A model generated the notes under the pieces. The model did no database searches. It was not told the DNA's origin and saw nothing but the letters and a program-made list of their open reading frames with translations. Position numbers and translations under genes: made by a program. A stretch of DNA of 64,000 nucleotides from Chloroflexota bacterium (lineage in GTDB: Bacteria > Chloroflexota > UBA11872 > VXNJ01): the NCBI GenBank assembly GCA_965261345.1, contig OZ253449.1, positions 2,016,001-2,080,000 on the forward strand, given 5' to 3'. Shown here one piece after another: positions 16,921 to 20,864 of the stretch (positions within the stretch are counted from its first letter, which is position 1; each line of letters begins with the position of its first letter).

Positions 16921-18287
16921 CTAGACCGCTCCGAGGGCGCTTAGCAGCGCCGCGGCCTTGTGCTGAGTTTCTTTGAATTCGGCCGGTGGCTGCGAATCGG
17001 CCACAATCCCGCCGCCGACGTGGAATTGCCACTCCCGTCCCTCGCTGTATATGGTCCGGATCGGGATCGAGGCGGAGACGTATCCGTCAAATCCGACCTG
17101 GACGATTGCGCCGCAATAGCCGCCGCGGGTTACCGGCTCCAATTCGGCGATTATTTCCATCGCCCGCAATTTGGGAGCGCCGGTCACCGATCCGCCCGGA
17201 AACATCGACCTTAGTAGATCAAGCGCCCGCGCGGGCCCCGAAACCCGGGCCGAAATAGTCGACTCCAAATGGTGGATCCGCTGATTCGTAACGATCTGTA
17301 ACAGCCGCTCTACGGCAACTGATCCGGGCTCGGCGATTTTTCCAAGGTCGTTTCGCAAGACATCGACGATCATTACGTTTTCGGCTCGGTCCTTGGGGCT
17401 CATGACCAATTCTTCGGCCAGGACCTGGTCGGCGACCGGGTCCTCTCCACGGGGCCGCGTCCCCTTGATCGGCCGGGTTTGCACGACCCCTTTTTGGTGG
17501 AGCAACAGCAATTCGGGTGAAGCTGAAATTACCGATTGGCCGCGCTGACTCAAAAATGCGGCCATCGGATCGGTTCCCGACCGCCGCAGGCGCAGGAAGA
17601 CATTCCAGGGATCGGCACCCAGACGGCCCGATAGGCGCCGGGCGATGTTGACTTGGTAGACATCGCCGGCGGCAATGTAACGCTGAACCTGTTCGACGGT
17701 TTGCATGTAGCCGGAACGCGTAAAGTCGCTCATTGCCCCACTTGAACGGATCGAAGGAATCGCCCGCCATCTGGTTCGGAGCGCGGTTAGCAGGCTGCGA
17801 CGGTCAGACAGCCCGGTCTGCGGTCGGGGGTCGGCCCCGTTTACGATCAGCCACGTCTCGCCTTTGCCCTCGTCGTGGGCGATCACCCAGCCGTAGAGCC
17901 CGAAGCGCATCAGGTGACGCCCCGCCGGTGCACGGCAGTTGCGGACCCGATCAAAGCAATAGCCGGCCTCGTATTCAATTTGCCCGATCGCCCCGCCCGA
18001 AAACGGAACCGGGCCGAAAGATACCTCGCCGTGGCCGGCAAGGACCAAGTCCGACAGCTGGGCAAGCGCGTCGCCTTCGGGCTGTCCCGGCAGCCAGTCC
18101 ACCCAGGCGTACGGGTCGGCGGTTAGATAGCTGTGCCCGGTAACACCATTGGCGATAAACGCCAGGCCCGGCAGGTGACGGAGGTCCTCGGCGATCAACT
18201 CCAGCGGAGCCGACGACCGCAAGCGCTCGTATTGGATTAACCGCAGGCGCCGGCGGTTCGGGTTCGCCCCGGAAGGATCAATGGGCA

Positions 18288-18288
<1 letters not shown>
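16921..18288 (-). CDS. pabB: aminodeoxychorismate synthase component I
   Basis: GDVYQVN, SASPE, TRPIKGT, KDRAENVMIVD..RNDL, FPGGSVTGAPK, GGGIVADS; exact start uncertain. Confidence 0.88.
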
Positions 18289-18361
<73 letters not shown>

Positions 18362-18425
18362 GTGAGGGTTGTTAGGGAGGTTCAAGCATACTAATTTGAG
18401 CCGCCGGACCACCGGCGTTAGGGAT

Positions 18426-18535
18426 TTGAAGGGCTAATGCAATGGGGCTTATATACCTAACTAGCACAAGGCCCGTCGGCATACATTTACGCCGCCTCGC
18501 CGGCGGCCGCGGGCATAACCCCGCCCGCGAGAGCC
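18426..18535 (-). ncRNA. putative TnpB omega/right-end RNA
   Basis: Consecutive hairpins overlapping and following the tnpB stop (GCGGGC..GCCCGC; GCCGCC..GGCGGC; TGTATGCC..GGTATATA). Boundaries uncertain. Confidence 0.5.
18436..18462. repeat. left copy of 27-bp imperfect inverted repeat (partner 19909-19935)
   Basis: GCTTATATACCTAACT (18447-18462) is the exact reverse complement of 19909-19924; 24/27 over the extended match. Confidence 0.9.
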
Positions 18536-19634
18536 TTCTGAAGGATGTTTAAGGCCGCGTTGTGATCGCGGTCGATATCCAGACCGCATTCACATACGTG
18601 CCTTCTCACCTCCAGGCTCTTTCTGACCATCGCACCGCAACTGCTGCAGCGCTGCGAGGTGTTTCTGGGGTTGACGAATACCAGCTCCCTACCGGCGCTC
18701 TCGGCCTTGTAGAGAAGCTGACTGATGATCCGTCCCCAGCTTTGTTCCAATATGGCGCGGTTCAGTCCGCGCTTTCTGGCCCCGCCCGATCTGGTCATGG
18801 CCTTTTTGTCCAGCTTCTCCACGGCTATATATCCGTAGCACCGGATCAAATCGGTCGTTATCCGATGGCACTGGTTCCTGTCCCTGATCCGGGCCCGCTC
18901 ATGCGCGTTGGCCAGGATGCGACGGCGCTGCCGGAAGCGGCGGCTGCCCTTCTTGCATGCCGACAGGCGCCGCTGCTTGCCGACTATCTCGGCGCGGTCC
19001 ACCTGGCGGCGCTCGATCTTTCGACCCTCACTGGTGGTGATGCGGGCCATAACTCCCATGTCCAGGCCGACCTTGGCCGGGTCATATGGCAACGGCTCCA
19101 TCTCAACCGCGTAGGCCCGGTTCACGGCTATGCGCCGTCCCCGGAAGGCAATACGGATCGTCTTCAGGTCTTCTGAAGGCGGCAGCGCTCGCCCGGTCCG
19201 GATCTTAATCGCCGGCAACCCTTTTACACGGACTGCGTAACCGCGCCCGTCGGGTCTGACCATCGCGGGCGTAGTTTGTTCCAGCTGGATCGTGCGGTAG
19301 CGATGATGCGGCTTATAGCGCGGGAATCCTGGTTTCTCACCGTTCTTACAGCGGCGGTAAAAGGCCTGCTTGGTGCTTTCGGCGCGAGTGAGCGCACCGC
19401 GCCGATATCGACCGACAGGGTCCCCCAGAACGGGTCCTGGCTGCGGGTACGAGTGAACGCCTTCATGCGGTCGAACAGTGAATCGCTATTGCCGCATTCT
19501 TTGTAGGACCGGCGCCATTCTTCCAGTTCGGCGTTGTACAGCTCGGCGCATCCGGAGAGCACCTGGTTGAGCCGATCGCAGCCGCGGCGGCTCAGGAAGC
19601 CGCGCCGCTGGAAGGTGCGGTAGGTGGTCGGCAT
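18487..19634 (-). pseudogene. tnpB: TnpB RNA-guided endonuclease (IS200/IS605, IS1341-like solo tnpB), one frameshift near 19400
   Basis: N-part MPTTYRTFQRR..LYNAELEEW; after the shift FYRRCKNGEKPGFPRYK, VGLDMG (D), AVEKL (E), NPRNTSQRCSSCG, CECG, DRDHNAA (D). No tnpA nearby. Confidence 0.9.
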
Positions 19635-19908
19635 TTGCCGGTGTTCTATATATATGGGTTCTATTTTTAAGGCCTTAAGTATATATGGTATGTTCGATAT
19701 ACTGTTTGCGCCCATGCGTTCGTTGATATCGTCGGGCGGGCGAGCAAGCAAGACGGCACACCGCCCTCCTCTATGGAAGGCCCTTTACGATCTCGGCGTC
19801 AATTTCCGCTGGTAGTGGGTCTGGTCGATCGGTGGCTGCGATTCGGCGCCGACAATCATGCGTGTGTGAAACCGGCGGGGTTCATTAAGATTCAGTCGGG
19901 TTGGATCA

Positions 19909-19935
19909 AGTTAGGTATATAAGCGCCAATGCAAT
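19909..19935. repeat. right copy of 27-bp inverted repeat, overlapping putative -10 box and ATG of ADP-ribosylglycohydrolase
   Basis: AGTTAGGTATATAAGCGCCAATGCAAT; ATG at 19929. Confidence 0.9.
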
Positions 19936-20864
19936 CAATAGACCGCTGGCGCGGGTCGTTGCTGGGACTTGCCTGTGGGGACGCGTTGGGGATGCCAGTC
20001 GAGTTCGCCGATCCGCCGCCGAGCGAACCGGTAATCGACATGATGTCGGGCCGCTCGCGCGGGCAGAAAACTCCCGCTGGCGAGCCGGTTGAAGCTCCGG
20101 CCGGGAGCTGGACGGACGACACCGCAATGACTCTTTGCCTGGCCGAAAGCCTGCTGGAGTGCTCCGGCGTGAACCTGCCCGATCAAATGCAACGCTATTG
20201 GCGCTGGGGTAACGAGGGCCACCTTTCAGCCACCGGGCAGGCATTTGGTATGGGGCCGACCGTCAAGGATGCATTGCGGCGATTTTCGGCCGGGCAAGGA
20301 CCCTGGGGCGATGCCGAAGCGTTGACCAACGGGTCGCTAATGCGGGCGGCCGCCCCGCCGCTTTTCTTTGGCGGGCGCCCCGATCTGGTCCGGGCGGCAG
20401 CAGAATGCTCCACCCCCACCCACTTACATCCGGTGTCCCAGGCCGCCTGTCAGGTTTTTGCAAATCTGCTGGCGATGGCGCTGGCCGGGGCCGGGCGACC
20501 GCAGTTGCTTTCAACCGGTGCCGGCAGCGAGGGCCTGGGTGGCCCCCTGCCTGGCCGGCTTGACCAGATCCTGTCCGGCGACCTGGCCGCGCGCTCAAGG
20601 GATGAGATCTCCGGCGCCAATAACGTCGAATGCACCTTAGAGGCTGCCCTGTGGTCATTTGCGACGACCAACGACTTTGAATCCGGCGCTGTCGTTGCGG
20701 TTGACCTGGGGCTCGATGCTGATACAACTGCATGTGTATACGGTGCCCTGGCCGGCGCCCACTACGGCATCGCGCAGGTCCCCGCGCGCTGGCTGAAACG
20801 GCTTTGCCGGCGAGAGTTGCTCGAACAATTTGCCGAGCGTCTGCATGCGGCCGCCAACGATTGA
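19929..20864 (+). CDS. ADP-ribosylglycohydrolase (DraG/ARH family)
   Basis: GLACGDALG, WTDDT, NGSLMR, DADTT..VYGALAGAHYG. Confidence 0.93.
   Translation: MQSIDRWRGSLLGLACGDALGMPVEFADPPPSEPVIDMMSGRSRGQKTPAGEPVEAPAGSWTDDTAMTLCLAESLLECSGVNLPDQMQRYWRWGNEGHLSATGQAFGMGPTVKDALRRFSAGQGPWGDAEALTNGSLMRAAAPPLFFGGRPDLVRAAAECSTPTHLHPVSQAACQVFANLLAMALAGAGRPQLLSTGAGSEGLGGPLPGRLDQILSGDLAARSRDEISGANNVECTLEAALWSFATTNDFESGAVVAVDLGLDADTTACVYGALAGAHYGIAQVPARWLKRLCRRELLEQFAERLHAAAND

Follow-up and report, generated by a model that had tools for sequence, protein, structure and literature searches.

Matching 16-nucleotide segments beside a tnpB gene in a Chloroflexota genome as the probable inverted ends of an IS1595-type element

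In a 64,000-nucleotide stretch of a Chloroflexota bacterium genome (contig OZ253449.1 of assembly GCA_965261345.1, positions 2,016,001 to 2,080,000 of the forward strand; the whole stretch is called the window hereafter), a tnpB gene lies divergently beside an ADP-ribosylglycohydrolase gene. The same 16 letters, AGTTAGGTATATAAGC, occur at 18447-18462 on the minus strand, beginning 24 nt past the tnpB stop codon TAA (18489-18487), and at 19909-19924 on the plus strand, close to the start of the glycohydrolase gene. Does this match join an RNA guide to a neighbouring promoter, as an earlier note on this DNA had proposed in its title, or do the two segments have another origin? We found that window positions 18444-19927 are a 1484-bp insertion sequence-like element with terminal inverted repeats and an 8-bp target-site duplication. 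This is very probably a non-autonomous IS1595-type element carrying tnpB as cargo, with the two 16-letter segments as its inverted ends and not as a guide and its promoter target.

Inverted ends and target duplication of the tnpB element

With up to three mismatches allowed, the 16-mer had two matches in total in the window, in inverted orientation to each other. Shuffled versions of the window gave a mean of 0.02 matches and none of 100 shuffles gave two, confirming that the perfect 16-nt match noticed earlier is real. In a repeat search no inverted repeat of the region was longer than this pair, which spans 25 nt and is 92% complementary. When the whole 2.39-Mb genome (G000) was considered, there were two exact copies and a single copy with two mismatches at C1:1292596, which is the leftover left end of a related element.

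The construction of the two arms was revealed by reading both on the plus strand. The left arm is AATGCAAT followed by GGGGCTTATATACCTAACT and the right arm is AGTTAGGTATATAAGCGCC followed by AATGCAAT; the outer eight letters form a direct repeat and the inner 19 an inverted one. The terminal inverted repeats of the window element are therefore 19 nt long, and 18 of the 19 positions agree between the arms (GGSGCTTATATACCTAACT). The mismatches lying distal to the 16 identical letters had been taken as a sign of seed-type pairing, an interpretation that fails here: the 11 letters concerned are three further letters of the repeat plus the 8-bp target duplication AATGCAAT, whose two copies look partly matched only because six of its eight letters are self-complementary. 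The sole gene inside 18444-19927 is tnpB, and since no transposase is encoded by the element, it is a non-autonomous derivative. The right end is the tnpB-proximal one. The features of the locus are as follows.

18288-18361, minus strand: tRNA-Cys (GCA), left neighbour of the insertion site (ARAGORN; Rfam RF00005, 69.5 bits)
18429-18435, plus strand: AAGGGCT, the Shine-Dalgarno region of the glycohydrolase gene, now displaced (AAGG(G) stands near the start codon in empty sites)
18436-18443, no strand: left copy of the target-site duplication, AATGCAAT, a direct repeat with 19928-19935
18444-18462, no strand: right-end (tnpB-proximal) terminal inverted repeat, GGGGCTTATATACCTAACT on the plus strand, including the first 16-mer
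18444-18529, minus strand: omega-RNA-like structured 3′ region overlapping the end of tnpB, with four helices (covariation in 24 copies)
18487-19634, minus strand: tnpB, with a 1-nt deletion near 19400 (Pfam PF07282, PF01385; blastx)
19635-19908, minus strand: left-end internal region, comprising an AT-rich promoter-like stretch at about 19640-19700 and a module of ~170 bp
19909-19927, no strand: left-end terminal inverted repeat, AGTTAGGTATATAAGCGCC on the plus strand, including the second 16-mer
19928-19935, no strand: right copy of the target-site duplication, AATGCAAT, which provides the glycohydrolase ATG (19929)
19929-20864, plus strand: ADP-ribosylglycohydrolase gene, 311 aa, intact open reading frame (Pfam PF03747, E 2.4e-63)
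19936, minus strand: candidate last base of a target-adjacent motif (TAM), a G on the tnpB-sense strand, the base outside the left-end duplication

Sites without the element were then found in a DNA search of 40 relatives, among which three genomes of the same genus (G002, G003 and G006) carry an empty site. In each of them the tRNA-Cys gene is followed, 78-97 bp on, by the glycohydrolase gene, the orthologues being syntenic, and the sequence is similar to the window up to a point short of the left border of the element and then again from the right border onwards. Furthermore, in one contig from a public metagenome run (X12), 18435 is followed directly by 19928; the 1492 bp between them are absent, and eight letters fit both sides. 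This contig represents an empty allele, indicating that the insertion is polymorphic in nature.

Comparison with the empty sites also showed what the insertion did to its host gene. In G002, G003 and G006 an AAGG(G) motif stands a few bases 5′ of the start codon; in the window the AAGGG motif (18429-18433) lies to the left of the insertion, ~1.5 kb away from the body of the gene. The element thus stands with the Shine-Dalgarno sequence on one side and the coding body of the glycohydrolase gene on the other, and the insertion separated the gene from its native upstream region. The gene retains an ATG because the target duplication contains one. This ATG (19929) lies 2 nt outside the left inverted repeat, and the right copy of the 16-mer does extend up to it, as had been described earlier. 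The locus illustrates an effect on the host in which a gene is split from its ribosome-binding site while its ATG is preserved through the duplication.

It could further be proposed, in a manner compatible with an IS1595-type insertion, that the TATATA of the left end (19916-19921) acts as an outward -10 box and that the glycohydrolase mRNA is leaderless, starting at or near A19929. The ATG stands 8 nt past the TATATA box, the 311-aa open reading frame is still intact and the native AAGGG has been displaced, all of which would fit. Against this, a consensus scan of 18350-20050 found no sigma-70-like promoter, and no -35 partner lies at the proper spacing in the sequence, the promoters of this organism itself being uncharacterised, and we consider the proposal unlikely. 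An Rfam scan of 18200-20100 with E values up to 1 gave the tRNA-Cys as its sole match.

Several smaller observations concern the left-end region. Directly upstream of the tnpB start, at 19643-19688, there are three tandem AT-rich units of ~15 nt (GTTCTATATATATGG and variants) in a genome that is otherwise GC-rich, and they overlap with the motif that family members have retained ahead of tnpB. The ~170-bp left-end module persists elsewhere in G000 as a solo remnant at C1:1292589-1292743 (L003 about 1498-1655), which starts with GGCGTTTATATACGTAACT and is 79% identical to window 19772-19931. The remnant lies in a 420-bp intergenic gap in which no tnpB or right end was recognised. A piece similar to it (80%) is present in G002 at C1:1774775-1774942.

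Related copies and the likely IS1595-family partner

The family was extended by fetching 20 related copies, 68-77% identical, from G001, G003, G005 and G006. All 20 terminate in ...ATATAAR.CCC at the tnpB-proximal end and diverge immediately beyond it. When the 8-mer past the right end was used as a probe for an identical 8-mer before the left end, a match was found directly before a GGSGMTTAYATAC-type left end in 12 of the 21 Chloroflexota copies, the window included (nine exact, three at 7/8). The left end of the window element aligns with GGCGCTTACATACCTAAGT at the left ends of L025, L026, L028, L029, L030 and L033, and a motif ATATACTTTACGCC...CATACAGGGGCAATG upstream of tnpB is common to the related copies. 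The 5′-truncated copy L035 was excluded from translation; among the other 19, 18 have open frames of 381-383 aa and one (L040) is broken. The earlier note had named a comparison of homologues beforehand, in which constancy at both ends would mark a terminal inverted repeat, and this is the outcome that was obtained.

Miniature elements of 175 bp with the same ends were found in G001, at C39:39903-40077 (L047), C42:20241-20415 (L048) and C77:69492-69666 (L049), and two of the three are bounded by 8-bp duplications (AGTACGAT, GTTGGTTT). Their right end still contains a hairpin similar to the one in the tnpB elements. A search of seven genomes of the genus gave only these three miniature copies plus two fragments. 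In one tnpB copy, L027 (within L044, G005 C23:78900-83200), the left end has been moved 3 kb off by an IS21-like insertion, whose open reading frame resembles IstA by eye and whose repeated terminal motifs are visible. A search of metagenome contigs with the right-end 18-mer gave 27 loci, none with TnpB, an IS1595 transposase or a left end, and most of them represent one unrelated locus.

A protein-profile scan of representative genomes placed the nearest relatives outside the genus in metagenome-assembled genomes of Acidobacteriota, with TnpB proteins 42-43% identical. The tnpB elements there are 1244 bp long with the ends GGGGATTATATACGTAAGTGCC...GGCACTTAGGTATATAAGCCCC, and the 13 that were fetched show the duplication at 8/8 in 11 cases, 7/8 in one and 3/8 in one. 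Nine further and more divergent copies of the Acidobacteriota family with both ends were recovered from 15 loci examined. A pattern search in the two Acidobacteriota genomes recovered these tnpB elements and, with near-identical ends, many longer elements, which measure 1.76, 1.63, 1.53 or 1.51 kb and are bounded by GGGGATTATATACGAAAGTGCC; the left end of the tnpB element and this end of the transposase element match in 24 of 26 letters. Exact 8-bp duplications were present in 17 of the 18 longer elements fetched, and their inverted repeats agree at 20-22 of 22 positions. All four open reading frames tested from the longer elements match PF12762, DDE_Tnp_IS1595 (E 1e-35 to 1e-39), and contain the IS1595 zinc ribbon. 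For ISApl4, an IS1595-family element, A/T-rich 8-bp direct repeats are reported in PMC12561309.

G000 itself holds two intact PF12762 genes, at C1:933066-934001 and C1:2211460-2212377. The second is preceded by GGGGCTTATATACTTAGTTA, which differs from the window repeat by three mismatches in 20. As a side observation, the flank beside this element end (L150 1989-1996) is GTTGCATT, with seven letters in common with the duplication read on the tnpB-sense strand, ATTGCATT; the likeness could be a coincidence or a shared target taste.

Taken on the shared ends and the length of the duplication, mobilisation of the tnpB element in trans by an IS1595-family transposase appears the most likely course. 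The element inserted at the start of the glycohydrolase gene, duplicating 8 bp of target (AATGCAAT), and its ends would serve as the sites for the transposase. Several results weigh against this interpretation. Nine of the 21 Chloroflexota copies have no left end or duplication under the criteria used, one of them being 5′-truncated and one having its left end displaced by the IS21-like insertion. No second end or duplication of the element at C1:2211460-2212377 was recognised within the 2.9 kb fetched, and such a repeat was not found around the other PF12762 gene of G000, nor around the transposase genes of G006. PF12762 was not found in G001 (80% complete) or G005 (90% complete), though each has seven matches to the tnpB element. 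Finally, no element with both tnpB and an IS1595 transposase was present in the genomes searched; a 3.6-kb end pair in G041 encloses a transposase and other DNA without tnpB.

Predicted guide-RNA scaffold at the right end and the G beside the duplication

The last 230 nt of 24 copies were aligned (alignment A3), and a four-helix structure was tested by sliding the partners and by shuffling. In the four-helix model 93.6% of cells are paired, compared with 38-61% when partners are slid; compensatory changes occur in 12 of 22 pairs, and none of 500 shuffles reached the observed values. The tip of the element, GYCCC, pairs with an upstream GGGRY loop to form a pseudoknot, the tip in the window being GCCCC and its partner loop GGGGY, and the ATATA of the repeat pairs with TGTAT just past the stop codon (18450-18454 with 18481-18485; helix 4). 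The hairpin at 18450-18485 that had been pointed out from the window alone is hence real and is conserved as helix 4 in the 24-copy alignment. No Rfam family matches this omega-RNA-like region. According to PMC13565253, the 3′ end of prokaryotic omega RNAs forms a pseudoknot with the scaffold.

The covariation indicates a second role for the right inverted repeat, namely in building the last helices of the predicted TnpB guide-RNA scaffold. The sequence beyond the right end, past 18444, is variable among copies; since variable sequence starts only there, the 16-mer would be scaffold and transposase site and not guide. The guide itself would come from the flank past this border and consist of the duplicated 8-mer together with the bases after it.

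We oriented the elements by tnpB and scored the base directly 5′ of the left-hand duplication in those elements with a recognisable duplication. A G was found in 13 of 13 Acidobacteriota elements, 12 of 12 Chloroflexota elements and eight of nine of the further divergent copies, 33 of 34 tnpB elements in total. At the same position, 18 transposase-only elements had C in nine, G in six, A in two and T in one. Fisher's test of the first 25 tnpB elements against the 18 transposase-only elements gave p = 1.2e-6, with the reservation that elements from one genome are only partly independent of each other. Judged by eye, L027, the copy split by IS21, has G as well; the miniature elements with duplications have it in none of two, too few to serve as a control. 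The duplication begins with A in all 13 Acidobacteriota tnpB elements, as against nine of 18 transposase-only elements. A mirror motif on the right side was not found. The left flanks of the tnpB elements have the single G in common and no fixed target motif of 4-5 nt.

In an empty site this G would come directly before the stretch that a flank-derived guide matches, where a TAM is expected. The G signature is possibly a TAM imprint, i.e. a trace of selection for insertions that TnpB can target again. Alternatively, it could stem from an oriented choice of target by the transposase, the two ends of the element differing slightly. A wider scheme can be drawn, whose chances we put a little short of even, in which an IS1595-family lineage recruited TnpB and its guide RNA, the right repeat serves the omega RNA as its 3′ pseudoknot strand, the guide comprises the duplication and its flank, and the G is a very short TAM imprint. 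To our knowledge, an RNA-guided homing or retention role has so far been shown only for the scarless IS200/IS605 and IS607 elements. Were the scheme true, RNA-guided cutting of the empty site, for homing or retention, would act on a classical DDE transposon and shape its insertion landscape. The single-G signature hints at how a fit between nuclease and transposon may be achieved, and it gives a testable TAM prediction.

Rival readings, known systems and the state of tnpB

Three other accounts of the 16-mers were weighed against a non-autonomous IS1595-type element. The proposal that the 16-mer is a guide or seed by which TnpB binds without cleavage at the promoter or start of either the glycohydrolase gene or tnpB itself, in the manner of TldR, draws on the exact complementarity of 16 nt and on the copy that abuts the ATG at 19929; as with any inverted repeat, an RNA containing one end, here the right, might in principle pair with the other. 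The right copy, however, is DNA of the element: neither the X12 contig nor the empty sites of G002, G003 and G006 contain it. At dozens of unrelated places, with unrelated genes as neighbours, tnpB is enclosed by this inverted pair, and so are transposase-only elements that have no tnpB. In addition, the 16-mer lies inside the conserved paired scaffold, the variable sequence in which a guide would lie coming only beyond 18444; the family has invariant RuvC residues D192, E273 and D357, unlike nuclease-dead TldR; and the tnpB of the window is frameshifted. A seed-type guide acting on the promoter of a neighbour is therefore extremely improbable, and what looked like a perfect 16-nt match of guide and promoter is a pair of transposon ends, with no evidence here of regulatory targeting. 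Another suggestion of the earlier note, that the copy upstream of tnpB is a detached duplicate of the scaffold 3′ end and a proto-CRISPR repeat, gains something from the place of the 16-mer in the last helices of the scaffold. We give it next to no credence: the copies are inverted and not direct, the second has a fixed place at the far end of the element next to the target duplication, transposase-only elements without a scaffold have this repeat at their borders too, and there is no array and no spacer-like unit.

The remaining suggestion of that note, namely inverted-repeat ends of a ~1.5-kb tnpB element unlike those of IS200/IS605, is the one that held, with 19-nt repeats, an 8-bp duplication and ends shared with IS1595 elements. 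It must still be set against an ordinary tnpB-only element of the IS200/IS605 (IS1341) type, moved as a single strand by a Y1 TnpA in trans, in which the inverted repeat would be incidental. TnpB (PF01385, PF07282) is indeed the only gene, the 3′ end has an omega-RNA-like structure, and solo tnpB elements are common (PMC10691335). Such an account is nevertheless very unlikely in view of the inverted repeats and of the exact 8-bp duplications in 11 of 13 Acidobacteriota and nine of 21 Chloroflexota copies. The Y1 transposase profile PF01797 was not found in five genomes of the genus (G000, G001, G003, G005 and G006), a control search being positive in six of 14 known genomes, and the left flanks offer a single G in place of a fixed 4-5-nt target motif.

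The kind of element found here is known, since DDE-linked TnpB branches have been described. Altae-Tran et al. (2023; PMC10691335) report six TnpB branches linked to DDE transposases, all with inverted terminal repeats and with the 3′ end of tnpB less than 250 bp from the transposon end; for solo tnpB elements whose ends are nearly identical to those of transposase-bearing elements, mobilisation in trans is suggested there. The main text of that paper names only IS630 (branch DDE-6), and IS1595 and ISXO2 do not occur in it. A 2026 review lists ISL2, IS630 and IS1031 as DDE families with TnpB and argues that such unions are rare in prokaryotes, TAM-bound nucleases being ill-suited to transposons with variable targets (PMC13565253). 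The window element resembles the DDE-associated branches in having tnpB inside an inverted-repeat element near the transposon end, and differs in that the named partner there is IS630 whereas here it is IS1595, with a variable 8-bp duplication. We found no paper on an IS1595-TnpB pairing in the literature searched; the supplement of PMC10691335 may list the family.

With the IS1595 family, reportedly described by Siguier et al. in 2009, the window element shares its terminal inverted repeats and A/T-rich 8-bp duplications. The autonomous partners have an ISXO2-like DDE transposase with an N-terminal zinc ribbon; the window element differs in lacking a transposase gene and in carrying tnpB and a predicted guide-RNA scaffold for whose 3′ end the right inverted repeat is used. 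Elements of the IS200/IS605 and IS1341 group are alike in having tnpB as their single gene and an omega-RNA-like structure over its 3′ end, but are without inverted repeats and duplications, of which the window family has both; they are marked by subterminal hairpins and by insertion 3′ of a fixed target of 4-5 nt. The review states that IS200/IS605 elements have, by definition, neither terminal inverted repeats nor target duplications, and that IS607 elements likewise lack both (PMC13565253). In eukaryotic transposons with inverted repeats and target duplications, Fanzor is likewise a TnpB-type nuclease in a DDE element; the duplications there are short, have a fixed sequence (TA, TTAA) and are interpreted as belonging to the TAM or the scaffold (PMC13565253). 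In the window family, by comparison, the duplication is 8 bp long and variable and should belong to the target matched by the guide, and the scaffold retains its 3′ pseudoknot. TldR proteins are, as reportedly described by Wiegand et al. in 2024, nuclease-dead repressors resembling TnpB. The window locus is similar in having a TnpB-derived protein beside a gene whose start could be reached; it differs in that the family keeps D/E/D, is mobile with many insertion sites, and has its matched 16 nt in the DNA of the element.

Compared with these systems, the family provides a clean, multi-copy case from two phyla of tnpB within an inverted-repeat DDE transposon with 8-bp duplications, for which autonomous IS1595 partners were identified. 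It also has miniature derivatives and an insertion that is polymorphic among public metagenomes, and its covarying predicted scaffold makes second use of the transposon end.

The tnpB copy of the window is decaying. Its product matches PF07282 (4.1e-23) and PF01385 (5.8e-11), and the gene is divided into two open reading frame pieces, 19224-19634 and 18487-19263, with a change of frame located by blastx at nucleotide ~235 of the frame. Contigs from the metagenome runs X4, X9 and X12 have an extra G behind 19400, at this very frame change, showing that the window copy and X1, probably the sample from which the window sequence derives, carry a 1-nt deletion. The broken frame implied by the earlier note was thereby verified. 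As to the RuvC D/E/D residues, which the note called intact, D192, E273 and D357 and four Cys are invariant in ten family members, and the window tnpB retains all of these in its downstream frame, cut off by the deletion. In other alleles the same copy lacks 11 nt at 18679 (X4) or has lost 15 nt in frame at 19528 (X9, X12); such differing lesions among strains suggest independent decay at the locus. A second, heavily degraded tnpB relic was seen in G000 at C1:1137407-1138115, with piecewise identity of 31-50% and four internal stops (two TGA and two TAG).

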